From the NCBI GenBank assembly GCA_041179705.1, contig JBEGSW010000060.1:8990-72989 (forward strand): a stretch of DNA of 64,000 bases, written 5' to 3'. The notes under the pieces are model-generated. The model did no database searches. It was not told where the DNA came from and worked only from the letters and a program-made list of their open reading frames with translations. The translations under genes were made by a program, and so were the position numbers. Of the stretch, positions 9,162-54,729 are shown piece by piece; position 1 is the first letter of the stretch, and the number at the start of each line of letters is the position of its first letter. Source of the DNA: Bacillota bacterium. Its GTDB lineage: Bacteria; Bacillota; Bacilli; Paenibacillales; JBEGSW01.

Positions 9162-11565
9162 TAAATTGCGCGTTTATGAATACGCCAAAAATATCGATAT
9201 GAGCAGTAAAGAAATTATTACCATCCTTAAGCGTGTTAACATGCCTGTTAACAATCACATGAGCGTAATGGAGCCTGAGATGGTTAGTGCAGTAGAGAAC
9301 TTCTTCAAAGATTTGAAGGAGAAAGCAGCAGCGAAAAGATCGGGTGTACCTGTACCTCAAAAAGCGCCTGCTCAACCGAAACCTGCAGCGACAGCAACAC
9401 CTCAGGTGGCAGCACCAGCCGCACAACCTGCGGCTCCAGTAGCGAAGCCGACAGCACCACCAGCACAACAGCAGCAACAACGTAAACCTGATCAACGCCC
9501 TGCACAACAACAACCGCGTACGGGGGGGAATGACCGTTCTGGGTTTACAAAGACTTCTTCATTCCCTGTAGCAGTTGGTCAGACGGCACCGCTTGTGACA
9601 CCAACTAACACTGGTGAAAAGAAAAGCTACGATTCCTATGATATAAACAACCGTAATGATCGAAATGCTAACAAACCAGCTCAAAAACCTGGCCAACGTC
9701 GATTTGACGATAATCGCCAAGGTGGTGGTTTCCGTGGTGGTCAGAACAATCGTAATCGTTTCAACAAGAACAACAGAAATCAACCACAAGTGAAGAAAGA
9801 AAAAATTGATAATACACCTAAGAAAATCATCGTTCGCGGTGAAATGACTGTTGGTGAATTCTCGAAATTACTTCACAAAGATGCATCAGAAGTTATCAAG
9901 AAGTTATTCATGAGCGGCATCATGGCAACCATTAACCAAGAACTTGACCTTGATACTATCCAACTCATCGCTGGTGAATACGGTGTTGAAGTGGAATTGA
10001 AACTTCCAGTTGAGGAAGATCCATTTGAAATGGATGAAATCTTGGAAGACGAAGCTAACCTGAAAGAGCGTCCACCAGTGGTAACAATCATGGGTCACGT
10101 TGACCATGGTAAGACAACATTACTTGATGCGATCCGTGAAACGCGTGTTACTGAAGGCGAAGCTGGCGGAATTACACAGCATATTGGTGCTTACCAAATT
10201 GAAATTAAGAACAAAAAAATCACATTCCTAGATACACCAGGTCACGAGGCATTCACAATGATGCGTGCGCGTGGTGCCAAAGTTACAGATATCACGATTC
10301 TTGTCGTAGCAGCTGATGATGGTGTAATGCCACAGACAATCGAAGCGATTAACCATGCGAAAGCGGCTAATGTGCCAATTATCGTAGCGGTTAACAAAAT
10401 CGATAAACCAGATGCCAATGTTGACCGAATCAAGCAAGAATTATCTGTGCATAACCTCGTAAGTGAAGAGTGGGGTGGAGACACTATCTTTGTTAATGTC
10501 TCTGCAAAACAACGCACAAACTTGGATGAACTTTTGGAAATGATTCTTCTCGTTGCAGAAGTTCAAGAACTTCGTGCAAATCCAAAGGCATTAGCGCGTG
10601 GTACAGTAATCGAAGCAGAATTGGACAAAGGTCGCGGCCCAGTAGCGCGTGTGCTTGTTCAATCCGGTACGTTAAAAATCGGAGATCCATTAGTTGCTGG
10701 TAACACGTTTGGTCGTGTGCGTGCAATGGTTAACGATAAAGGCCGTCGTTTAAAAGAAGTTGGTCCTTCAACACCGGTTGAATTAACTGGTTTGAATGGC
10801 GTTCCACAGGCTGGCGATCAATTTATCGTCTTCGAGAACGAAAGCAAAGCTAGAGAAATCGCAGATAAGCGTACAACAACATATCGTGAAGAGAACCTCG
10901 GTAAAAATACGAAGATTACGCTTGATGATTTGTTCACGCACATCAAAGATGGCGATATCAAAGATTTGAATGTCATTATCAAAGGTGATGTTCAAGGTTC
11001 CGTTGAAGCACTTCGTGGATCTCTTGAGAAGATTGATATTGAGGGTGTACGTGTTCGTATTTTACACACGGGTGCTGGTGCAATTACGGAATCGGATATC
11101 ATCCTTGCTTCTGCATCTAATGCAATCATTATTGGCTTCAACGTTCGTCCGGAACCAGCTGCGAAGATGACTGCTGATCAAGAAAACGTTGATATTCGAC
11201 TTCATAGCATTATCTACAATGTCATTGCTGAAATTGAAAGTGCAATGAAGGGTATGCTAGATCCGATCTATAAAGAAACAATTATCGGTCAGGCTGAAGT
11301 TCGTAACGTATTTAAAATTACAAAAGTTGGAACAATTGCAGGTTGTATGATTACGAATGGTAAAGTTGCTCGTAATGCGGGCGTTCGCTTAATTCGTGCT
11401 GGGATTGTTGTCCATGAAGGCAAGATTGATCAGTTGAAACGATTTAAAGATGATGCAAAAGAAGTTTCACAAGGTTACGAGTGTGGGATTTCGATTGAAG
11501 ATTACAACGATATTAAAGAGTTGGATATTATCGAAGCGTTTATCATGGAAACCGTAGAAAGGTAG
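9142..11565 (+). CDS. infB: Translation initiation factor IF-2
   Basis: 807 aa. TTG start 7 nt after GGAGGTG. G domain [12 protein letters not shown] / DTPGHEAF / NKIDK. Long Q/P/A/N/R-rich N-terminal linker. Confidence 0.97.
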
Positions 11566-13870: not shown

Positions 13871-14806
13871 ATGGAAATTTGCCCGTTACGGTATCCTTTA
13901 ACTGAACAATCACCGTTATCCTCGAACCCAATTGTTATGGCGATTGGAGACTTTGATGGTGTTCATTTGGGGCATCAAGAAGTGATAAGGTCAGCCAAAC
14001 GTATTGCAGATGAAAATGACTGCATGTCGGCAATCATGACTTTTCACCCTCACCCTAGAGAAGTGCTTGGACAAAAGATATACTCGCGTTATTTAGCACC
14101 CTATGCGGATAAGATGGAACGATTTGCTGCACTTGATCTTGATTACGCTTATACGGTGCATTTTGATAAAGCCTTTGCCCGCGTAACATCAGAACAATTT
14201 GTTGAAGATATGCTCATGAAGATGAATATCCATACGGTTGTTGTAGGCTTTGATTTCACATTTGGTTATTTAGGCGCAGGAACGGTGGATTCATTGATTA
14301 AATTGGCAAACGGTCGTTTTGCTGTAGAAATGATCAAACCCTACCACTTAAACGGTGAAAAGGTAAGTAGTACAGTCATTCGCGAACAACTTCACTTCGG
14401 CTTTGTGGATGCTGCGATGGAATATCTTGGGCGACCATATCAATTGGCTGGTAAAGTTGTTCATGGTGAAGCAAGAGGAAGAACAATCGGTTTTCCAACA
14501 GCGAATATTGAAGTTACAGAACCCTTTGTGATTCCAACTAATGGCGTCTATTTGGTTAAGCTGCATCTAGATGGGAAATCCTATGATGGGGTTATGAATA
14601 TTGGTGTTAAGCCAACTTTTCACGTAAATGCCTCGGTTACAATTGAAGCTCATTTATTTGACTTTAATCAGGATATTTACGATCGCGTTGTTCAAGTGGA
14701 GTTATTATCTTTTCTACGACCGGAGCAACGATTCAACTCAATCGATGAATTAATTAATCAAATTGAAGCCGATGTAAGGAAAGCAAAGGCCAAACTTGCT
14801 GAATGA
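13871..14806 (+). CDS. ribF: Bifunctional riboflavin kinase / FMN adenylyltransferase
   Basis: 311 aa, GDFDGVHLGHQ, GFPTANI, typical position after truB. Confidence 0.95.
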   Translation: MEICPLRYPLTEQSPLSSNPIVMAIGDFDGVHLGHQEVIRSAKRIADENDCMSAIMTFHPHPREVLGQKIYSRYLAPYADKMERFAALDLDYAYTVHFDKAFARVTSEQFVEDMLMKMNIHTVVVGFDFTFGYLGAGTVDSLIKLANGRFAVEMIKPYHLNGEKVSSTVIREQLHFGFVDAAMEYLGRPYQLAGKVVHGEARGRTIGFPTANIEVTEPFVIPTNGVYLVKLHLDGKSYDGVMNIGVKPTFHVNASVTIEAHLFDFNQDIYDRVVQVELLSFLRPEQRFNSIDELINQIEADVRKAKAKLAE

Positions 14807-25571: not shown

Positions 25572-27995
25572 ATGGAGCTCATGGGGGTGTTCAGTTTGGC
25601 AGCACGACGTAAAAAAAACAACGTAAAATCAACTTTGAAATTTGAAGTTTATGGTATATTAATCATCATTCTTTCTTGGATTAGTTTAGCGGGTCAGGGT
25701 GAATTACCGGGTCTAGGTCCAGTTGGGCGTGCGTTAGGAAATTTATCAACATTATTAACGGGTAAAGTGTATTATATTATGCCTGCAATCGCTATTTATG
25801 TTGCGTTATATATAATGATTAAGCGAACTTGGCCAAATTCATGGTCATTCCGAAAGACAGGTATTTTATTGATTATTCTCGCTTTATTATTACAGTTACA
25901 GATTAATTTAATTGATAAAATTAAAGCGACTGAACCATTTGGTGCAATGGATATCTTGCAACAACCTTTGTCTCATTTTAAGGCATACTTCGCAAATGAG
26001 ATTTCTTCACTTGCCTATAAGAATGGGCTTGGTGGTGGATTATTAGGCGCCGTTTTATATACAATTTCATATGCTTTATTTGATGAGTTGGGTGCGAAGT
26101 TTATCATGATTGGTATGTATGCAATTGGAATAATTTCGATTACAGGTTGGTCCTATGTCGATTTAGCTCGAAAAGCACGCGGTTCTGGTTTAACTGTTTT
26201 CGAATTACTTAAATCGAAATTGGACGGCACTTATCGTCATATTCGTGAATCGCGTGATGAGCGAATTCGTCAAGAAGCATTAAATCAAATGAATGATCAA
26301 ATAAATGAATCAGCGGATGATGACTTCACTCCGGCTCCTAACCGTCCAATGTTTTTTGATTTAAATAATAAGCAATCGTCTGAGACTCCTGTAGATATAG
26401 TAGAGGATTTTCCGAATGTTTCATCTTCGGATGAACCGATTGTTGTGAGGGACTTTTTTGAACAAGTATCCAAAGAAGCAAGTGGTCGTGGAAAGACAAT
26501 TTCGATTACTGAAGAACAGCAAATTGAAGATTTTGAAATAGCATCAGCAGTTCCAACACAACAGAAACCTTATGTTTTACCATCCCTTACATTACTGCAA
26601 TCTCCTAAATCAAAAGGAAGCGCGGCAGGCAGTGATTACATGAATAATGCGCGAAAGCTTGAGACCACACTTGAAAGTTTCGGCGTGAAAGCGAAGGTTG
26701 TTGAGGTTGTTCGGGGTCCTGCAGTTACACGTTACGAAATTCAACCTGATGTTGGTGTTAAGGTTAGTCGCATTGTTTCTCTAACAGATGATATCGCCTT
26801 GGCATTAGCTGCTAAAGATATTCGAATGGAAGCGCCCATTCCTGGAAAAGCTGCTATAGGCATTGAAGTACCGAATACAGAAGTATCTCTAGTGACTTTA
26901 CGAGAAGTTATGGAGACGAGTGCATTCCAAGGTTCCTCTGCGAAACTCAGCGTAGCATTTGGACGAGACATTTCTGGATCACCCATTGTATCTGATTTAG
27001 CCAAAATGCCGCATTTACTTGTAGCCGGAGCAACAGGTTCTGGAAAATCAGTATGTATTAATGGCATCATTACAAGTATTCTATTTAAAGCCAAACCAGA
27101 TGAAGCGAAATTCTTAATGATTGACCCCAAAATGGTTGAATTAAATGTCTACAATGGGATTCCACATTTATTAAGTCCGGTGGTTACTGATCCAAGACGA
27201 GCATCGTTGGCATTAAAAAAAGTGGTTAAAGAAATGGAGAATCGATACGAATTGTTCTCCAAATCTGGGACGCGTAACATTGAAGGCTATAATTCCCATT
27301 TAATCAAGGAAAACCAAAAACCTTTGCCTTTTATCGTAGTTATTGTTGATGAATTGGCAGATTTAATGATGGTAGCTGCTAATGATGTCGAGGATTCCAT
27401 TTGTCGATTGGCTCAAATGGCTCGTGCCGCTGGGATACATTTAATTATTGCAACACAAAGACCATCTGTTGATGTAATTACTGGAGTAATTAAAGCGAAT
27501 ATCCCATCAAGAATTGCTTTTGGTGTTTCTTCACAAGTCGATTCAAGAACGATTCTAGACAGTGCCGGAGCAGAAAAATTACTTGGTCGTGGGGACATGC
27601 TGTTCGTTCCGGTTGGTTCCAACAAACCAACTCGTGTGCAAGGAGCATTCTTGTCAGACCAGGAAGTAGAAGCAGTATGCAATGCTGTTCGTTCCCAAGC
27701 ACAAGCTGAATATCAACCTGAGATGGTCCCTGAATTGGAGCAAGAAGACGAAAATGATGTGGATCCAAATGAGGATGAACTTTTTGATCAGGCTGTTACA
27801 ATCATTTTAGAAGCCAAGCAAGCTTCAGTTTCTTTACTTCAAAGACGGATGCGGATTGGCTATACACGTGCAGCCCGATTGATTGATTATATGGAAGCTA
27901 AAGGTATTATCGGACCATATGAGGGTAGCAAACCAAGAGAAGTATTATATACGCTCGAAGGTTATAGAGGAAGAAATCTAGGTACAAACGAATAA
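25572..27995 (+). CDS. ftsK: DNA translocase FtsK/SpoIIIE
   Basis: N-terminal TM helices, Walker [22 protein letters not shown]-terminal gamma winged helix ([21 protein letters not shown]). Start is uncertain: a TATAAT at 25568-25573 suggests a downstream GTG/TTG (25587/25596) may be used. Confidence 0.93.
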
Positions 27996-46710: not shown

Positions 46711-46726
46711 GTAGGTGAAGAATTAT

Positions 46727-47542
46727 ATGAGGACACGATTAATTCAACTATTAATTATATTTATCCCTTCATTTGTCATCGGATTTTGGGAGTATTTTAG
46801 ACATGAATATTTGCTATTTATCCTTACTATGGAACAGGGAAACTGGTTAGCACCAATAATTGTATTGATTGTCACATTAATCTTCGCAACGCCATTATTT
46901 AAGCGATTAGAATACACACAAAAAGAATTAAATGTTGTATCAAAAACGAAAGTTCAATTGGAAGAACGCGAAAAAATAGCCCAAGAATTACATGACGGCA
47001 TCGCACAATCAATTTTTCTTCTTTCTGTGAAATTAGATAAATTAGAACGCGAATTTGGCATAAGTGCTCCTTCTCAAGAACTTCGTAAGACGATTCATCA
47101 AATAAATGACTATGTTAGAGACTCGATCGTTAATTTGAGGGCTCCTATCCAAGAAAATTCCGATCATCTTGAAGATTCGCTTGCGATATTGATAAATAAT
47201 TTCAAAAAAGAAACGGGATTCGAAGTTCAATTTGACTGGAATATATATGAAAAGTGGCTTTCACCTAAAGAACAGTCGGTGGCACTTGCCGTTGTTAGAG
47301 AAGGGTTATTTAACGTAAGGAAACATTCCAATGGTTCAATCGTGACCATACGCACTGCGGGCAACCAAAATCAGTGGTCAATAATTATCGAAGATAATGG
47401 TCTGATTTTTAACACTGACACAAACAGAATTTATGATCAATTCGGAATAAAAATGTTAAGTGAACGATGTGAAGAAGTAAGTTGGAAGATTGAATTAGTT
47501 CATTTACAAGGATGTACAAAGCTCATCGTTTCGAAAGGGTAG
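46727..47542 (+). CDS. Sensor histidine kinase, HisKA_3 (NarL/LiaS-type), minimal two-TM input
   Basis: Two N-terminal TM helices with a ~15 aa loop. H-box AQELHDGIAQSIF, N-box REGLFNVRKHS, IEDNG. ATG 46727 preferred over GTG 46715. Confidence 0.85.
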   Translation: MRTRLIQLLIIFIPSFVIGFWEYFRHEYLLFILTMEQGNWLAPIIVLIVTLIFATPLFKRLEYTQKELNVVSKTKVQLEEREKIAQELHDGIAQSIFLLSVKLDKLEREFGISAPSQELRKTIHQINDYVRDSIVNLRAPIQENSDHLEDSLAILINNFKKETGFEVQFDWNIYEKWLSPKEQSVALAVVREGLFNVRKHSNGSIVTIRTAGNQNQWSIIIEDNGLIFNTDTNRIYDQFGIKMLSERCEEVSWKIELVHLQGCTKLIVSKG

Positions 47543-47546
47543 GTAT

Positions 47547-48194
47547 ATGGACAACTTAAAAGTATTGTTAGTCGACGATCATGCACATGCCAGAGAGGGG
47601 ATGAGAGATATTCTTAACTTACATCCTCTTTTTGATGTTGTTGGTGAAGCTACACATGGCTTGGAAGCAATTGCATTTGTTGAACGATTAATGCCTGATT
47701 TAATCTTAATGGACATTAAAATGAAAGAATTAGATGGGCTTGAAACGACAAAAATAATTAAAGAAAAATATCCTTATATTAAAATTGTAATCGTTACAGT
47801 TTCGGATGATATTTCTCATTTATTTGAGGCGATAAAAAGAGGGGCTCAAGGTTATTTATTAAAAAATCTTCATCCTTCTACATGGATTGAATATCTAGTT
47901 GCCATCGCAAATGACGAAGCGCCGATGTCTAAGGAACTTGCGTTCCAAATCCTTAGTGAATTCAATCAATCAACAACTCAAAATCAGGATTTCACCATAT
48001 TAACGAGTAGAGAGCAAGATATACTCCGATTAGTCGCACAAGGGCTTGCTAACAAACAGATTGCAGAAGCTTTAGTTATTTCTGAACACACCGTTAAAAA
48101 CCATTTAAAAAACATCATGCAAAAACTACATGTTGAAAATCGCGTATTATTGACGAAGTATGCTTTTGAATCTGGTCTTATGAATCCAAATTAG
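47547..48194 (+). CDS. Response regulator, NarL/LuxR family
   Basis: REC domain (LLVDDH...ILMDIKM), C-terminal LuxR HTH LTSREQDILRLVAQGLANKQIAEALVISEHTVKNH. Confidence 0.92.
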   Translation: MDNLKVLLVDDHAHAREGMRDILNLHPLFDVVGEATHGLEAIAFVERLMPDLILMDIKMKELDGLETTKIIKEKYPYIKIVIVTVSDDISHLFEAIKRGAQGYLLKNLHPSTWIEYLVAIANDEAPMSKELAFQILSEFNQSTTQNQDFTILTSREQDILRLVAQGLANKQIAEALVISEHTVKNHLKNIMQKLHVENRVLLTKYAFESGLMNPN

Positions 48195-48214
48195 CCCTTT
48201 TGGGCTTTTTTTGT
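48193..48214 (+). terminator. Rho-independent terminator after the response regulator
   Basis: AGCCC-tttt-GGGCT followed by TTTTTTT. Confidence 0.75.
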
Positions 48215-48254
48215 TTAACTTTTGTTAAATATAAGTAAATATTTATATAAATTA

Positions 48255-48283
48255 TTGATTATATAAGTATATCGTTATATATT
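48255..48283 (+). promoter_or_regulatory. Candidate ars operon promoter, embedded in AT-rich repeats (likely ArsR operator region)
   Basis: TTGATT, 17 nt spacer, TATATT. TATAAGTA occurs twice (direct repeat) in the 48228-48275 region. Confidence 0.45.
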
Positions 48284-48304
48284 TGATTTGAAGGTGGTGA
48301 CAAA

Positions 48305-48622
48305 TTGGATATTAGTATCGAAATTTTATCTGAACGGTTTAAGTTATTAGGCGACAAGACACGATTATCCATATTAGCGTTACTTCGTGAACGAGATATG
48401 TGCGTCTGCGAATTTGTCGAGGTTTTACACTGTTCTCAGCCAGGCGTAAGCCAACATCTAAAAAAACTTAAACAAGCAAATTTAGTAAGAGAATATCGAA
48501 AAGGTCATTGGATTTACTATCAATTAAATAAAGAAGAAATTCCTGAGTTGACTATATACATGGTCGATATTCCGAATCTTAAAAAATACATTGATCAAGA
48601 ACAAGTGGAATGTGAGGCTTAA
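48305..48622 (+). CDS. arsR: ArsR/SmtB family metalloregulator
   Basis: 105 aa. Metal-binding CVCEF motif, wHTH VSQHLKKLKQANLV. TTG start after GAAGGTGGTG. Confidence 0.9.
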   Translation: MDISIEILSERFKLLGDKTRLSILALLRERDMCVCEFVEVLHCSQPGVSQHLKKLKQANLVREYRKGHWIYYQLNKEEIPELTIYMVDIPNLKKYIDQEQVECEA

Positions 48623-48625
48623 TTC

Positions 48626-49936
48626 GTGATGACAAATGATTTTCAAATGATTGCAGCAATTGTAATATTTTTGATAACGTTGACACTTGTAATATGGCAA
48701 CCTAAAGGGCTGAGTATTGGTTGGTCTGCAAGTGCAGGAGCAATATTTGCATACCTATTTCAGGTTGTTGATATACAAGACTTCATAACAGTAACAGATA
48801 TTGTATGGAATGCTACAATCACATTCATTGGGATAATAATCATCTCGTTAATACTAGATGAGATTGGATTCTTTGAATGGTCTGCCTTACATGTTGCACA
48901 TTTTGCTCGAGGCAACGGTAAAAAGATGTTCGTGCTAATTATTTTCCTTGGTGCTGCTGTTTCTGCATTATTTGCAAATGATGGGGCGGCACTAATCATG
49001 ACACCAATTGTTCTCGCGATGGTTCGTTCGCTACGCTTCGATGATCGTATGGTGCTTCCGTTTATTATGGCGTCAGGCTTTATCGCTGATACGACTTCGA
49101 CACCTTTTGTCATAAGTAATTTGGTGAATATTGTGTCTGCCGATTTTTTTGAAATTCGCTTTGCAGAATATGCGCTGCATATGATTGTTCCAACTTTATT
49201 TTCACTCTTTGCCAGTTTAGCTGTCCTTTATTTGTACTTCAGAAAAGATATACCTAGTCACTATCGATCTGAAACACTTAAGAAGCCAATTGAAGCGATT
49301 AAGGATTTCCGTTTATTTAAATTGTCTTGGTTTATTTTGGGAATTCTTCTAACTGCTTACTTCATAAGTGGATATGTAAAAATCCCTGTTTCTGTATTCG
49401 CTGTTTTTGCTTCACTAGTATTCTTGCTTGCCTCAGTCAATAGTAAGGCTGTTCATATTCGAGGAATCCTTAAGCATGCACCATGGTCGGTTGTTGTCTT
49501 TTCAATTGGGATGTACGTTGTTGTGTATGGGTTACAAAATGTCGGTTTAACGACGATTCTAGGTAAATTTCTCCAACTCGTTGCAGATAAAGGATTGTTT
49601 GTTTCTACAATCTCAATGGGATTTATTGCAGCAATATTATCCTCTGTAATGAATAATATGCCTACGGTTATGATTGACGCCTTAGCTATAAAATCGGTCA
49701 CAGCGACTGAAACGGTAGAGAAGGGGCTCATCTATGCAAATGTCATAGGTTCTGATTTAGGCCCCAAAATCACGCCTATCGGTTCATTAGCAACATTATT
49801 ATGGTTACATGTGCTCTCCCAAAAAGGAATACGAATTACGTGGGGGTATTATTTTAAAATTGGGATTTTATTAACAGTTCCTACGTTATTTATCACATTA
49901 ATTGGATTATATGTGTGGCTCTTATTAATTAGTTAA
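48626..49936 (+). CDS. arsB: Arsenical pump membrane protein ArsB
   Basis: 436 aa polytopic; [43 protein letters not shown] as in staphylococcal ArsB. Confidence 0.92.
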
Positions 49937-49966
49937 TCACATTAAATATTAAATTTGGAGGAAATT

Positions 49967-50389
49967 ATGTCTAAACAAACAGTTTATTTCTTATGTACAG
50001 GCAACTCTTGTCGCAGTCAAATTGCTGATGGATTTTTAAAGAAGTATGGTTCTGAGAAATATGAAGTATTAAGTGCAGGTCTTGAAGCACATGGTCTTAA
50101 TCCGCGAGCGATTCAAATAATGAAAGAAGTTGGCATTGATATCACGTCACATACATCAGATGTAATCAATCCTGAAATCTTAAATCGCGCTGATTATGTC
50201 ATAACGCTTTGTGGACACGCGGATGAACATTGTCCAGTAATATTAAATAAGAACGTAATAAAATGGCATTGGGGCTTCGAAGATCCTGCAAAAGCGCAAG
50301 GTACTGAAGAAGAAATCATTGCGAAGTTTAGAGAAGTAAGGGATGCAATTGAAACACGTATAAAGGCATTTATGAAAGATGGTATTTAA
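49967..50389 (+). CDS. arsC: Arsenate reductase, thioredoxin-coupled LMW-PTPase type
   Basis: [18 protein letters not shown] (CX5R P-loop) plus the Cys pair in [13 protein letters not shown] follows GGAGGA. Confidence 0.93.
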
Positions 50390-50405
50390 ACCATCTTTCT
50401 TTTAT
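50377..50405 (+). terminator. Terminator of the ars operon (stop codon in loop)
   Basis: AGATGGT-atttaa-ACCATCT followed by TTCTTTTAT. Confidence 0.6.
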
Positions 50406-50454
50406 GTTATAATATATTCACAAAACTCGTATTTTGTACATAAGTATGAATCAA

Positions 50455-50488: not shown

Positions 50489-51766
50489 CTAATTTGTAGC
50501 TGGTAATTGAATCTTTATATGTGTTCCTTTTCCTTTACTACTTTGGATATTAAGTTTACCGTTCATCTGATCAATTAATTTACGACAAACCATCATTCCT
50601 AATCCTGTTCCTGTCGTTTTTGTTGTGTGATAGGCTTTACCAATATTCGTAAGTTGCTCGTTTGGTATACCAATTCCATTATCGATAACATTAATTTGCA
50701 CATAACCATTAATTTCTTCAGCAGATATTGTGACCTTAGCAGATTCTATATTTGAGCAAGCTTCAATCGCATTTTTTACGATATTCATTAAGATTTGATC
50801 TAATTTCTCTTTATATCCCCAAATATATAATTCCGTATTTTCATCATTTTTATTCTCTAGTGAGATATTGTTAAATAGTGAATAGCTGCTAACAATTGTA
50901 CAAATTCTTCTAATAGTATCATTTACATTAATCTTACCTAGAACATCTTGATTTGGTTTCGAATAGGATAAGTAATCCTTGATAATATATTCTGCTCTCT
51001 CCAACTCTGAATTACATAAATCGATGTAACTTTTAATCTTTTCACTTGGTAGTCGATTGTGGCCTTGTTGAATTAATTGTGTGAAACCTTTTACGACAGT
51101 GATCGGATTCCTAATTTCGTGGGCAATGGATGCAGCAATTTGACTGATTTGTTTAAGCTTTTCAGATTCCAGGACATCTTTTTCGATTTCTAATCTTCTG
51201 CCCTTCTCTTTGATTAAATATAATATTCCGATAAATAGTAACAACTCAACAAATGGATAAACGATTAAATTGAACAAAGTTCCAGTTTTAATAATGTCGT
51301 AAGCAAATGCTAACAATGCAGCATAACGAATTAAAATTAAGATAAGAAATAATTTAATACCCTCAGAAATTTCAATTTTCCGTGAAACGAATACACGCTG
51401 CTTCATTACAAGTATGCTATACATTGCAACTGCTTGTATCAGAAAAACGGTTAAATCAGTTAGATTATGCCCGCCACCAAGGATGACGTGAAGGCCCCAA
51501 ATAAATAAAAAGAATAACAAGCCCATGTGTGGGGAAAAAAAGATCATGATTAGTACAATTGGAAGCATGCGAAAATCATTCATAAATCCCGCATTTAAAT
51601 AATGGGAATGAATCACATTTAGGCAAGTAATGATTGGCACAGAAACAATGACTAACATTTTCTTACGCAAAGACTCAACAACAGAACTTTTCATATTTAT
51701 AATAAAAATAAATGGTAGCAGGATGAACATTATCTGCATAATTAAAATATTAAAAAGTTCAAACAA
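50489..51766 (-). CDS. Sporulation-type sensor histidine kinase with 6-TM N-terminal domain (KinB-like)
   Basis: ~6 TM helices, then H-box SIAHEIRNPITVVKGF (KinA-E style) and HATPase_c (NAIEA...DNGIGI...GTGLGM). TTG at 51766 follows GGAGGA; the ORF-track TTG at 51781 lies inside the RBS. Confidence 0.85.
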   Translation of the reverse strand: MFELFNILIMQIMFILLPFIFIINMKSSVVESLRKKMLVIVSVPIITCLNVIHSHYLNAGFMNDFRMLPIVLIMIFFSPHMGLLFFLFIWGLHVILGGGHNLTDLTVFLIQAVAMYSILVMKQRVFVSRKIEISEGIKLFLILILIRYAALLAFAYDIIKTGTLFNLIVYPFVELLLFIGILYLIKEKGRRLEIEKDVLESEKLKQISQIAASIAHEIRNPITVVKGFTQLIQQGHNRLPSEKIKSYIDLCNSELERAEYIIKDYLSYSKPNQDVLGKINVNDTIRRICTIVSSYSLFNNISLENKNDENTELYIWGYKEKLDQILMNIVKNAIEACSNIESAKVTISAEEINGYVQINVIDNGIGIPNEQLTNIGKAYHTTKTTGTGLGMMVCRKLIDQMNGKLNIQSSKGKGTHIKIQLPATN

Positions 51767-51918
51767 TGTTTTTTCCTCCAATTATCAATGTTAGGTTAAA
51801 CATAACAATAGTTACTTTAACATCTTAATTTATGAATAACAAACATTAATTTCCTTTTTTATAAAATTATTTATTATTCCGTAAACATTTAACTATAAAT
51901 TGAATTAGGAGGAAAAAT

Positions 51919-52989
51919 ATGAATGTCACAAAGCAACATGATCGACACTTGTTAGATCAGAAAATACCAAATATGCCCTGGTATATTGAGAAATTTATTA
52001 ATTACAAATTACCTGATTTATCACCCTCTTCCCTGCTCGAATATATTCGCGATTATGAAATGTTTCTGAATTGGTTGATTGCTGAAGGAATTGCAAATAG
52101 TTCATCGATAAAAGAGATACCATTATCAATATTAGAAGGTTTACATATGGATTCTATTGATGCTTATCGGTCTTTTTTAGCTACAAAGAAAATCGGCACG
52201 AATGGTAAAGTAACACAATCCAGGAAACTTTCATCTCTCCGCTCATTGTTCCATTATTTGAGTCAAATTGCTGAGGATGAACAGTTTTACCCACTCCTTA
52301 AACGAAATGTGATGGCTAAAGTATCGATTAAACGAACAAACAAACCGAAAGATACTGCCGCTAAACTTGAAGGGAAATTACTTCAGGAACACGAAATTTC
52401 TGAATTCATTGCATTTATCAAGAATGAGTATCCGATCGCACTTAGCAAAAACAAGCAAGCACTTTATGCTTATGAAAAGAATTATATACGTGATATTTGT
52501 ATCATCACGCTTATTTTGAACTCAGGTTTACGCGTCTCTGAAGTGGTAAATCTTAACGTTGACGATATAGATTTAAAGAAAAAGTTAGCCTACGCCTACC
52601 GCAAAGGGAAGAATGACGATACATTCAAAACTCCTGTGTATTTTCGACAAGATGCAATTGATGCGCTTGTACAATACATGGAGATTAGAGAACTAAGATA
52701 CAATGCGAATAAACGTGAAAAAGCACTATTCCTCGCCGTCGCGAATGGGAAGACAGAAGGCTCGCGATTGACCAAACGTGCAATTCAAGAGTTAGTAATC
52801 AAATACGCGAAGCGGTTTGGCAAACCCTATTTAACCGTTCATAAACTTCGACATTCGTTCGCAACAGATTACTACCTTAGAAATGACATTTATAAGACGC
52901 AAGAACAACTTGGACATGCCTCACCGGAAACAACACAAATCTATGCCCACTTAACAGATAAGACGATGTCTGAAGCCATTGATAAATAA
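51919..52989 (+). CDS. xerS: Tyrosine recombinase, XerS-like
   Basis: 356 aa. N-terminal MPWYIEKFINYKL..SPSSLLEYIRDYEMFLNWL..GIAN...IPLSILEGL, RNVMAKVS, GLRVSEVVNL, HKLRHSFAT, LGHASPETTQIYAH (catalytic Tyr). Pattern and length match streptococcal/lactococcal XerS as I recall it. Confidence 0.7.
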   Translation: MNVTKQHDRHLLDQKIPNMPWYIEKFINYKLPDLSPSSLLEYIRDYEMFLNWLIAEGIANSSSIKEIPLSILEGLHMDSIDAYRSFLATKKIGTNGKVTQSRKLSSLRSLFHYLSQIAEDEQFYPLLKRNVMAKVSIKRTNKPKDTAAKLEGKLLQEHEISEFIAFIKNEYPIALSKNKQALYAYEKNYIRDICIITLILNSGLRVSEVVNLNVDDIDLKKKLAYAYRKGKNDDTFKTPVYFRQDAIDALVQYMEIRELRYNANKREKALFLAVANGKTEGSRLTKRAIQELVIKYAKRFGKPYLTVHKLRHSFATDYYLRNDIYKTQEQLGHASPETTQIYAHLTDKTMSEAIDK

Positions 52990-53027
52990 AAAAAAGTTAC
53001 CGTCCCTTTTGGATGGTAACTTTTTTT
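52988..53027. terminator. Bidirectional terminator between xerS-like and the acidic-protein gene
   Basis: AAAAAAAA-GTTACCGTCC-ctttt-GGATGGTAAC-TTTTTTT. Confidence 0.85.
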
Positions 53028-53029
53028 AT

Positions 53030-54376
53030 TTAGGCTTCTTTATTCTCGTTTAATATTCGAATTGCCTCATTGAATTCATGAATGGCATCTTCTAATGCAT
53101 AGATTGTGTTTTGTAGTTGATCGCTATCCCAAGGATTTATCCGTAACTCGCGTTTGTACTCATTCAGTTGTTTGCGCATTGTATCGATATCCATTTGAAT
53201 CGTACTAATTAACGTTCTAAAGGTTACTGGTGGTTTTATTCTTGTTGGTTCAGTTACAGCTTTAACTTCATCTAGAATCGATTTTAAAGGCGCTGTATCC
53301 ATGTTGGGTGGATTTGTACCAATAATGTCTGTAAGTAGAGATTTAGCAGGTTCCGTTGGTGAGATTGGCAACGGTTCAGAATCGCTCGCCTGATCCGTTG
53401 ATAAATAATCAAATGGTCGTTTAGATTTATTTTTCATTACATTTGATAATGTTTCTTCATCCAATTCATTTACCCAATCTGGTAAATCTTCGAGCGGGGC
53501 CGTCTCGTAAAACACTTCAATTTCACGTTTAGGTTTCACATATTCGACTTCTTCTTTTTCGTCTTCAGTCATAGCAAGTGAATCCGTAGACAAATCGATT
53601 TCAACTACGTTATCCTCTACTTCTGTTTTTTCAGCGGTATTTTGTAGAGCCATATTAAACTTTTTGGTGTCAATGACGAGTGTTGCTGTTTGCATATCTT
53701 CATCGTCGTTGTCAATTGCTAAGTTAATTTGTTCGATATCAGTAACAACCGGTACTCTTTTTGTACTATGTGGTTGTTTGGTCTTTTCGTTATCAACTGA
53801 GATATCAATTCCGTCTAATTCTAGCTCGAGATTGCCTTCACTTTCAGCGGAATCAAATTTTATTTCATTTTCCTGAGTAGAATTCGGTTTCGTATTTTGC
53901 TTAGAAATCATATCTTTCATCCAATTATAGGATTCTTCTAAATGCTGAATCTTTTCTGGATCAACGACTTTAGAAGCCATCTTTGTTGGGTGAATGGAGA
54001 ATCGATTAGCAATAGTGTCATCCACAATCAAATCGGGATCACCTTGACTCTCAAGCTCAAGCTCTATTTCTGGGTCAACAGTTAAATCAATTTCTTTAGT
54101 TGGCTCAACTTTTTCTTCCGAAACTTGCTCACCATTCTTGCGAATGTATAGGCCACCTGAACAACTCTCAGTGAAATAAAAGACGAGCATTTCATTATAA
54201 TCAATTAGTTTAACTGCAGCATCAAAACTAGGGTTTAAATCATATTCATCAATTAACTTGTTAATTTCGGCGTCTCTACCTTGCACATAAAACTGTTGAC
54301 GAATAACTTTTCCTGCTAATTTATAATCACAGTTACGAAGTGTTGTCTTTAATTTAAGTTTCTCAAAAAAATTCAT
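53030..54376 (-). CDS. Hypothetical, highly acidic protein (448 aa), no family recognised
   Basis: ATG 54376 follows GGGGGA. Ordered-looking N-terminus (~90 aa) and C-terminal helical region (~70 aa) flank a D/E-rich low-complexity middle (EIELELESQGDPDLIVDD, NLELELDGIDISVDNE, DNDDEDMQ, TEDEKEEVEY). Confidence 0.7.
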   Translation of the reverse strand: MNFFEKLKLKTTLRNCDYKLAGKVIRQQFYVQGRDAEINKLIDEYDLNPSFDAAVKLIDYNEMLVFYFTESCSGGLYIRKNGEQVSEEKVEPTKEIDLTVDPEIELELESQGDPDLIVDDTIANRFSIHPTKMASKVVDPEKIQHLEESYNWMKDMISKQNTKPNSTQENEIKFDSAESEGNLELELDGIDISVDNEKTKQPHSTKRVPVVTDIEQINLAIDNDDEDMQTATLVIDTKKFNMALQNTAEKTEVEDNVVEIDLSTDSLAMTEDEKEEVEYVKPKREIEVFYETAPLEDLPDWVNELDEETLSNVMKNKSKRPFDYLSTDQASDSEPLPISPTEPAKSLLTDIIGTNPPNMDTAPLKSILDEVKAVTEPTRIKPPVTFRTLISTIQMDIDTMRKQLNEYKRELRINPWDSDQLQNTIYALEDAIHEFNEAIRILNENKEA

Positions 54377-54426
54377 TACGTTATCCCCCAAATTAATCGC
54401 GAGTGTTCAGCGAATGTTGTCGAAAT

Positions 54427-54696
54427 TTATTCTTTAATTACTGTCTTTTTCGCGGTTTCGACAAGCATGTCGAATAATTCATCTGTATCTTCTAGAACCT
54501 CTTCAAGTTCTAAAATGTTCTCCTCGGTGCCGGATTCTTCAAGAAATAGTAAACTATAACCCCAATCTTTTCCGTTCAATTTCTGCAAGTGAATTTCATA
54601 GGGTTGATCATGATTTTCATAACGAAATGAAACTTTTCCAACAAACCCATCTTCCTTTGAAAACGTCATTTCCGCATTTAAAATTTCAACATTCAT
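54427..54696 (-). CDS. Hypothetical small acidic protein (89 aa)
   Basis: ATG 54696 follows AAAGGAG. MNVEILNAEMTFSKEDGFVGKVSF...EENILELEEVLEDTDELFDMLVE. Own promoter upstream, 50 nt from the next gene. Confidence 0.65.
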   Translation of the reverse strand: MNVEILNAEMTFSKEDGFVGKVSFRYENHDQPYEIHLQKLNGKDWGYSLLFLEESGTEENILELEEVLEDTDELFDMLVETAKKTVIKE

Positions 54697-54729
54697 GATG
54701 ATATCTCCTTTATAATTCTGCATTTATTA

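Follow-up and report, generated by a model that had tools for sequence, protein, structure and literature searches.

The question raised by a 64,000-nt stretch of contig JBEGSW010000060.1 from a Bacillota bacterium (assembly GCA_041179705.1), hereafter the window, is whether the recombinase gene at its replication terminus, xerS, encodes an enzyme that resolves chromosome dimers, and on which DNA site such an enzyme would act. XerS has been presented as a streptococcal and lactococcal system (PMC1914069, PMC5357621), and in reviews XerS and its site difSL are described as acquired when streptococci and lactococci split from the other Firmicutes. A sequence-only reading of the window had placed a XerS homologue in a spore-forming host, with a partly difSL-like sequence just upstream of the gene. 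The analysis described here puts the probability at roughly 0.55 that the protein is a Paenibacillaceae-type XerS orthologue serving FtsK-coupled chromosome-dimer resolution, with its site within 50.4-51.9 kb and ATTATTCCGTAAAC as the best candidate half-site. This reading is carried by family membership, an intact active site, a distance of 1.5 kb to the skew-defined terminus and a FtsK/SpoIIIE translocase with a gamma domain in the window. The gene and its translation signal are as follows:

51919-52989, + strand: xerS-family tyrosine recombinase gene of 356 amino acids, an open reading frame (ORF) with an ATG start.
51907-51912, + strand: ribosome-binding site (RBS) AGGAGG, 6 nt ahead of the ATG, read directly from the sequence.

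At 51782, the start given earlier, begins the 137-bp spacer between the gene and its divergent neighbour, and the gene itself begins at 51919; no second tyrosine recombinase ORF was found in the 64-kb window.

On the NCBIfam XerS equivalog NF003462 the protein scores 374.2 bits (cut-off 267), and it fails the XerC model TIGR02224 (126.7 bits, cut-off 335), the XerD model TIGR02225 (113.6 bits, cut-off 330) and the archaeal XerA model (126.3 bits, cut-off 220); reference scores on NF003462 are 455 for S. suis XerS, 437 for Latilactobacillus, 433 for Lactococcus and 399 for Neobacillus. The sole Pfam match is the generic catalytic domain Phage_integrase at residues 181-347, and solved structures return distant Xer matches only, the XerH structure 5jjv among them being weak (E = 5.7e-11). 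In alignment with XerS proteins the catalytic set is intact (R205, K229, H308, R311, H333, Y342), so that the RHRY residues noted earlier extend to a complete R-K-H-R-H-Y, and the length is identical to the 356 amino acids published for XerS (PMC5357621). The N-terminal pattern given in the sequence-only reading is also present, since MPWY, S..SLLEY..DY..F..WL, IPLS.LE and RNVMAKV align with XerS of S. suis, Lactococcus and Latilactobacillus, the forms shared across the alignment being (M/L)PWY, S..SL(L)EY..DY..F..WL, IPL..LE and RNVM.KV. Identity is 34% with S. suis XerS, 42% with Neobacillus and 74-79% over the full length with the proteins of Paenibacillus, Cohnella and Gorillibacterium, with which the mean column identity is 83%; the closest relative by protein, at 89% identity, is encoded at the locus L085. 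In a neighbor-joining tree of 19 proteins that are positive on the XerS model, with a single Paenibacillus Xer-like protein as outgroup and computed without bootstrap, XerH or phage integrases, three clades appear: Lactobacillales, a Bacillaceae-type clade (Neobacillus, an enrichment-culture contig, a Cytobacillus plasmid copy and Ammoniphilus) and a Paenibacillaceae clade that includes the window protein, a grouping that is descriptive only. Directly behind the catalytic Lys hairpin (RKGKNDDTFKTPVYF) come four extra residues, FKTP (residues 234-237, window 52618-52629), an insertion shared by the window protein and the rest of the Paenibacillaceae clade and absent from the other XerS clades. 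The sequence comparison supports the protein as a member of the XerS family, neither XerC/XerD nor a generic phage integrase, as the sequence-only reading had proposed.

Compared with XerS of Streptococcus and Lactococcus (Le Bourgeois 2007, PMC1914069; Nolivos 2010, PMC2965235), the protein has the same equivalog family, length, N-terminal motifs and catalytic hexad, but it is only 32-34% identical, falls in a separate clade and carries the FKTP insertion. The Paenibacillus, Cohnella and Gorillibacterium proteins, of the same clade and with the same insertion, are its closest named relatives. CodV/RipX of Bacillus subtilis, that is XerC/XerD acting at the 28-bp dif, share superfamily, chemistry and cellular task with it, whereas they are about 295-300 amino acids long; XerCD genes are normally unlinked to dif. 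It has been reported that XerH, which acts at difH in Helicobacter and Campylobacter, is a single recombinase of about 355-360 amino acids whose gene lies beside its site at the terminus and whose activity depends on FtsK (PMC5357621), and that it is phylogenetically unrelated to XerS (PMC2731167); the window protein scores on the XerS model and not as XerH.

The protein call is correct but not new to databases, because NCBI already names the nearest relatives XerS: the pipeline name 'tyrosine recombinase XerS' stands on orthologues from Paenibacillus, Cohnella, Neobacillus, Cytobacillus, Ammoniphilus, Latilactobacillus and Vagococcus. The novelty that the sequence-only reading implied is therefore gone, although its call was right, and Kono et al. 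2011 also precede it with Lactobacillus helveticus, which has XerC, XerD and XerS, with xerS near the skew shift (PMC3025954). A literature search for XerS in Paenibacillus found no treatment, only co-mention of both terms without discussion of the point, and it found no experimental work on the Paenibacillus, Cohnella and Gorillibacterium proteins named XerS. A scan of species-representative genomes with two Paenibacillaceae-derived peptide patterns returned 527 XerS relatives, with one xerS copy per species locus. The XerS model also captures copies of another kind, so that the label 'XerS' in databases need not denote a resolvase of chromosome dimers. A XerS-model-positive copy lies on a 174-kb conjugative-plasmid-like Cytobacillus contig with TraG-like genes (L090), and XerS-like proteins lie beside Tn7 TnsA-like genes at L092 and L099; these proteins pass or nearly pass the equivalog cut-off, are distant at 39-45% identity and sit on separate branches.

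The second support for the preferred reading is position. GC skew is +0.10 to +0.19 until about 50 kb and about -0.13 past 54 kb, with the cumulative maximum at 50382; large ORFs are nearly all on the + strand until 50389 and nearly all on the - strand from 50489, xerS being the exception. With the skew maximum and the gene-strand switch only 1.5 kb off, xerS lies at the replication terminus, in agreement with the earlier remark that the gene sits at a strand switch. The orientation of GAAGAAG and of GAGAAGGG, the B. subtilis SpoIIIE recognition octamer, flips within 49.7-53.5 kb. The octamer occurs three times in the window, at 47298 (+), 49718 (+) and 51201 (-), and its flip at 49.7-51.2 kb fits convergence at 50.4 kb slightly better than at 51.9 kb, a weak indication with n=3. 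Finer mapping of the convergence point by skewed oligomers was tried and abandoned, as coding-strand bias confounds it and only 49.7-53.5 kb could be bracketed. A terminal position is found elsewhere as well: on the 5.59-Mb chromosome of Neobacillus sp. WH10, xerS is placed at 49.6% of the length, between flanks whose skews are +0.158 and -0.13, and xerS of L098 lies at the skew maximum. At the skew maximum of the window lies an inverted repeat, set between convergent terminators at 50374-50399 (+) and 50481-50458 (-):

50415-50442: imperfect palindrome TATTCACAAAA CTCGTA TTTTGTACATA, 11-6-11, an inverted repeat with 9/11 positions complementary, in a region that none of the relatives covers.

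The third element is the DNA site, for which two classes of control sites are available. Class I comprises difSL and the Neobacillus-type sites, with TTxCG-N16-CGxAA geometry, and class II comprises canonical-dif-like elements with an XerD-type arm near xerS. In a metagenome scan, all of about 40 streptococcal loci have ATCTTTCCGAAAAACTATAATTTTCTTGAAA upstream of xerS, so that the difSL sequence given by the sequence-only reading is right, as it is by PMC5357621. The Neobacillus-type loci (L088, L100, L101 and L102) have a 14-6-14 palindrome, ATTATTACGTAAAA TATAAA TTTGACGTAATAAT, upstream of xerS (9934-9967 in L088), which lies at the chromosome midpoint and skew flip; three such loci, with XerS proteins 99/76/65% identical, keep ATTATTACGTAAAATAT[AC]A[AT]TTTGACG[TA]AAT[AT]AT while the flanks diverge. 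The N16 spacing is invariant in the roughly 40 streptococcal and 4 Neobacillus-type sites. The right arm is placed at the promoter in both groups: in the streptococcal loci 17 nt separate its TTGAAA from a TATACT -10 box, and in the Neobacillus-type loci it supplies the -35 box (TTGACG, 17 nt, TAAAAT). This overlap of the right arm with the xerS -35 box suggests autoregulation of xerS. XerS binding is asymmetric, with a strong left arm and a weak, cooperative right arm (PMC2965235), and the central region of difSL, at 11 bp, is longer than the 6-8 bp of most dif-type sites (PMC5357621).

Against these controls, the two parts of the 34-mer ATTATTCCGTAAACATTTAACTATAAATTGAATT proposed in the sequence-only reading, which is found exactly at 51873-51906, behave differently:

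51873-51886, + strand: ATTATTCCGTAAAC, a difSL-like (class I) candidate for the left XerS half-site, 33 nt ahead of the ATG; the best-supported DNA element.
51887-51908, + strand: central region and right half (TATAA/TTGAA) as first drawn, putative and unsupported.

The left half agrees at 13/14 positions with a consensus derived from difSL and the Neobacillus-type site but not from the window sequence, at 12/14 with the Neobacillus-type arm ATTATTACGTAAAA and at 11/14 with the difSL arm. When the window is searched with the consensus ATTWTTMCGWAAAA at no more than 1 mismatch, 51873-51886 (+) is the sole match, 0.99 being expected per window, and with a half-site position weight matrix (PWM) from the two clades the same segment is the top hit on both strands at 15.8 bits, compared with shuffle maxima of 14.5 +/- 1.4. 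The protein match certainly exceeds chance. By score, the left-arm match is insignificant; what speaks for it is position and orientation only, as the top hit among 128 kb (both strands) falls in the 137-bp xerS spacer and in the expected orientation. As in streptococci and lactococci, a solitary gene at the terminus with its own terminator is accompanied by an upstream 14-mer resembling the difSL left arm, in the same orientation. The left half may be a real XerS half-site, whereas the site as first drawn is not established. For the partner half-site, the TTGAA arm is unsupported, and 51795-51822 and 50415-50442 are weak alternatives; the latter is the third-best class II PWM hit (about 0 bits) and lies outside the best class I sites. 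In addition, GTCATTCCGAAAGACAGGTATTTTATTGATTATT at 25844-25877, inside ftsK/spoIIIE, reaches a full class I score of 20.5 bits, above all 40 shuffles (maximum 19.2), which in a coding region is probably chance.

Resolution would also depend on a translocase, and one is encoded 24 kb away:

25572-27995, + strand: FtsK/SpoIIIE DNA translocase with a gamma domain (Pfam FtsK_4TM, FtsK_alpha, FtsK_SpoIIIE and FtsK_gamma, the last at 101 bits; NCBIfam FtsK).

This protein is the likely partner of XerS. In the proposed mechanism, two XerS monomers would bind a core site in the terminus segment 50.4-51.9 kb, FtsK/SpoIIIE at the closing septum would bring the two sites of a chromosome dimer together, and XerS would exchange strands through a Holliday junction to give monomers. 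XerS bound to ATTATTCCGTAAAC would probably also cover the promoter of its own gene.

Several results weigh against this mechanism or against the site chosen for it. Family membership alone is no proof of a dimer-resolution role, because the XerS model captures the plasmid- and Tn7-linked copies. Even with the best spacer the right half reaches only -1.8 bits, so that no full two-armed site can be demonstrated, and the 14.0 bits of the whole site do not exceed shuffles (15.0 +/- 1.6). The pentamers are spaced TTCCG-N18-TTGAA in the window versus N16 in difSL and in the Neobacillus-type sites, 2 bp longer; the distance of 23 stated by the sequence-only reading is correct for the window, but that of difSL is 21 start-to-start and not 20. 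The -35/-10 arrangement of the true sites is missing downstream, and the right arm cannot act as a -35 box here because the RBS abuts it directly. At L085, in spite of 89% protein identity, ATTATATGTAAAG is followed immediately by the RBS, with no TTCCG and no room for a right arm. A search for a difSL-like site near xerS in 80 Paenibacillaceae loci (L005-L084), the set holding the closest named relatives, gave noise only; instead, 37/80 of them have a canonical-dif-like element, GTTTACATAA-N6-TTATGTAAAC, 30-100 bp upstream of xerS. Within the 10 kb around the gene, 74/75 Paenibacillaceae xerS loci lie away from the skew switch and have negative skew on both flanks, a distance usually above 10 kb where the window gene is at the switch; in a few species the switch is 3-9 kb upstream. 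Finally, the GAGAAGGG copy at 51201, on the - strand, is oriented away from a site at 51.9 kb, as had been pointed out in the sequence-only reading.

The Neobacillus-type system offers a parallel for the preferred reading, with xerS likewise at the terminus and a left arm, ATTATTACGTAAAA, that agrees at 12/14 positions with 51873-51886. However, its protein is 42% identical and belongs to another clade, and its near-perfect 14-6-14 palindrome (TTACG-N16-CGTAA) with a -35 box is not seen in the window.

Among the rival explanations, the one that survives best holds that XerS is an accessory, terminus-linked recombinase beside a conventional XerC/XerD-type system and acts on, or binds next to, XerD-arm dif-like DNA; it is judged unlikely. 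The enzyme might then be a backup resolvase, an XerD partner on hybrid sites or an XDS-like terminus DNA-binding factor, and the relevant window element would be the following one and not the site of the sequence-only reading:

51795-51822: GTTAAACATAA CAATAG TTACTTTAACA, a weak dif-like 11-6-11 sequence (XerD-arm-like).

Class II elements count in its favour. The proximal element of the 37 Paenibacillaceae loci is asymmetric, one arm being exactly the XerD arm of B. subtilis dif and the other variable. XerD-arm elements also lie just upstream of XerS-family genes in L098 (-77), L092 (-59) and L106-L108. Textbook dif sites lie near xerS in Latilactobacillus (0.55 kb; L096 9449-9476), in L098 (0.77 kb; 9212-9239) and in Vagococcus (4.4 kb; L097 5632-5659), and Neobacillus L088 has a dif-like sequence with a 5-bp spacer after the xerS stop codon (11136-11163). 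From these sequences, xerS appears dif-linked across Bacilli. Such adjacency is no proof that XerS uses dif, because both must lie in the narrow FtsK-convergence zone and would be expected together anyway; it is possible, alternatively, that in class II lineages XerS uses dif-like DNA or cooperates at it. A simple dif role of the proximal Paenibacillaceae elements is disfavoured, because both xerS flanks have negative skew in 74/75 loci.

Multi-copy near-perfect palindromes of the form AGTTTACATAA-N6-TTATGTAAACT, with two XerD-type arms, cluster around xerS in L005-L084, mostly on the upstream side (for instance in L008 at 9948-9975 and 14134-14161); they score 30-36 bits with the canonical dif PWM, and such palindromes are absent within 10 kb of xerS in about 20/80 loci. 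They resemble the XerD-bound XDS sites of B. subtilis. They were considered as attachment sites of phages or of integrative mobile elements exploiting Xer (IMEX), an idea rejected as there were only 2 viral-contig matches and ordinary metabolic genes lie between the copies. The left arm of class I (ATTATTACGTAAAA in L088) equals, at 12/14 positions, the XerD arm plus adjacent spacer of class II (ATTATTATGTAAAC, e.g., in L035), the two having opposite polarity relative to the site centre. A passage of PMC11840125, citing Karaboja 2021, describes XDS as dif-like sequences in the terminus that are bound by XerD, which would be in line with an accessory role, as would the report that XerC/XerD, ancient and common among Firmicutes, have disappeared from Streptococcaceae only (PMC8136486).

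Paenibacillus genomes do hold a further candidate Xer protein. A Xer-like recombinase of about 310 amino acids (L015, 2626-3624, - strand) is conserved across the genus at 47-78% identity (P0329-P0392), and its gene lies 7-10 kb from xerS in three species (L015, L031, L034). Its C-terminus is of the XerC/XerD type, but its 220 and 199 bits are below both equivalog cut-offs, and NCBI names the family only 'tyrosine-type recombinase/integrase'. A search with the L015 protein as bait returned this Paenibacillus-wide family and then XerC/XerD of other taxa, which proves neither presence nor absence of XerC/XerD; the protein may be a diverged XerC or XerD, and its conservation favours a conventional system beside XerS.

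In the window itself, the PWM of the Paenibacillaceae element has its best hit at 51794-51823 (GGTTAAACATAACAATAGTTACTTTAACAT), which does fall in the xerS spacer, but its 8.3 bits are within shuffles (maxima 5.0 +/- 3.3) and two mismatches occur in the near-invariant right-arm TTATGT, so that where Paenibacillaceae xerS is often preceded by a strong dif-like palindrome the window has a weak version only. The 51795-51822 block is partly kept in L085, although this could reflect the overlapping promoter-like -35/-10 of the divergent kinase gene. The window is a terminus without a canonical dif: neither B. subtilis dif nor difSL gave a match at up to 8 mismatches, ATAA-N6-TTATGTWAA gave nothing beyond chance, and a PWM of 16 published Firmicutes dif sites reached 5.7 bits at best, with shuffle maxima of 10.8 +/- 2.5, where the control dif sites in L096 and L097 score 31-38 bits. 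We also know of no case in which XerS binds an XerD-type arm, which counts against an accessory role.

A quite unlikely reading is that this lineage independently dropped XerC/XerD together with canonical dif and relies on XerS alone or, in a related form, that XerS acts on XerD-arm dif-like sites throughout Paenibacillaceae. Loss of XerC/XerD is shown for Streptococcaceae. In the first form, the site may be strongly asymmetric: a well-matching difSL-type arm at 51873-51886 would be paired with a degenerate one, across a centre that exceeds those of all other XerS sites by 2 bp; in the second, the system may be a XerS/XerD hybrid, or XerS may have switched to another site type.

It is improbable that 51873-51906 functions as the sequence-only reading wrote it, as a complete difSL counterpart in which ATTATTCCG...TTGAA arms enclose a lengthened centre. 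Its left arm matches well and both CTATAA and TTGAA occur, as in difSL; the length of the central region varies among Xer systems, as noted above; and in L087, whose XerS is 53% identical, TTCCG-N17-CTGAA lies about as far from the start codon and has palindromic outer arms GTTA.TTC. The right arm speaks against it, however, given its negative score, a whole site not above shuffles, the departure from an otherwise invariant N16, and an arm that runs into the RBS and is not kept in L085.

It is highly improbable that the gene is unrelated to chromosome dimers and reached the terminus region with an element that is or once was mobile, as its integrase or resolvase: the plasmid- and Tn7-linked copies, the accessory genes around the locus (arsR-arsB-arsC, two-component systems) and a XerS-like integrase in the B. 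cereus tet(45) element (PMC4876114) would fit it, but no transposase, excisionase, phage or conjugation genes were found within 10 kb of xerS and no att-like direct or inverted repeats flanking it, the copies on mobile DNA are only distantly related, unrelated lineages likewise have the gene at the terminus, and an identity of 74-79% between genera, together with a single copy at each species locus among 527 hits, is unlike mobile integrases.

The wider distribution matters because the XerS family reaches across Bacilli (Paenibacillaceae, Neobacillus-type Bacillaceae, Latilactobacillus, Vagococcus) and is highly conserved and tied to the terminus, where reviews call XerS/difSL a peculiarity of streptococci and lactococci. 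A testable question follows from it: did XerS begin as an accessory recombinase of the terminus and only later take over from XerCD in Streptococcaceae? Cultivable spore-formers such as Paenibacillus and Neobacillus could allow two Xer systems to be compared within one cell. For the window the practical value is modest and consists of a correct annotation, a located terminus and three short candidate DNA segments.

The remaining features bound the xerS gene on either side:

50489-51781, - strand: divergent neighbour, a membrane histidine kinase gene (Pfam HisKA and HATPase_c), which bounds the xerS spacer and lies outside the system.
52989-53027: hairpin terminator common to xerS and the convergent gene, with 17-nt arms, 94% complementary, and flanking A/T runs.

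The gene is solitary, with its own RBS and terminator, and a promoter scan of its spacer gave nothing above chance. The genes flanking xerS (histidine kinase, arsRBC, ABC-F ATPases, peptidase) are non-syntenic relative to the Paenibacillaceae relatives despite the 74-79% protein identity. Synteny downstream of xerS with P. elgii, suggested by similar ORF sizes, was rejected, as tblastn showed the genes to be non-homologous. Similarly, Le Bourgeois et al. described the behaviour of xerS in streptococci as that of an 'individual module' (PMC1914069). The window also holds polC, pnp, dpaA/dpaB, asd, dapA, RNase J1, ylxY and FtsK/SpoIIIE, of which dpaA/dpaB, ylxY and SpoIIIE/FtsK mark the host as a spore-former, as the sequence-only reading had it. 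The host is AT-rich (33-42% GC), far below the GC of the Paenibacillus, Cohnella and Gorillibacterium hosts of xerS.

In the public collection a single protein is identical to the window XerS, RLZZ267_1366 from a Bacillota bacterium MAG, and the identical contig was found in four metagenome assemblies. The same-organism contigs L001-L004 have identical candidate sites and 0-2 substitutions over the compared stretch, all in the kinase gene, and they are uninformative on conservation because they are near-identical to the window. LexA-box-like sequences (AGAACGTGCGTTCC; CGAACTTGTGTTCG) lie about 60-90 bp upstream of XerS-like genes at L103 and L107, hinting from sequence at SOS control of some XerS-like genes; upstream of the window xerS no such sequence is present. 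On the pre-terminus side, accessory genes end the arm at 46715-50389 with a HisKA_3 kinase and a LuxR-type regulator followed by arsR-arsB-arsC. Directly past xerS, at 53030-54723, lie two genes (453 and 98 amino acids) without a Pfam match, the 453-residue protein being acidic and repetitive.

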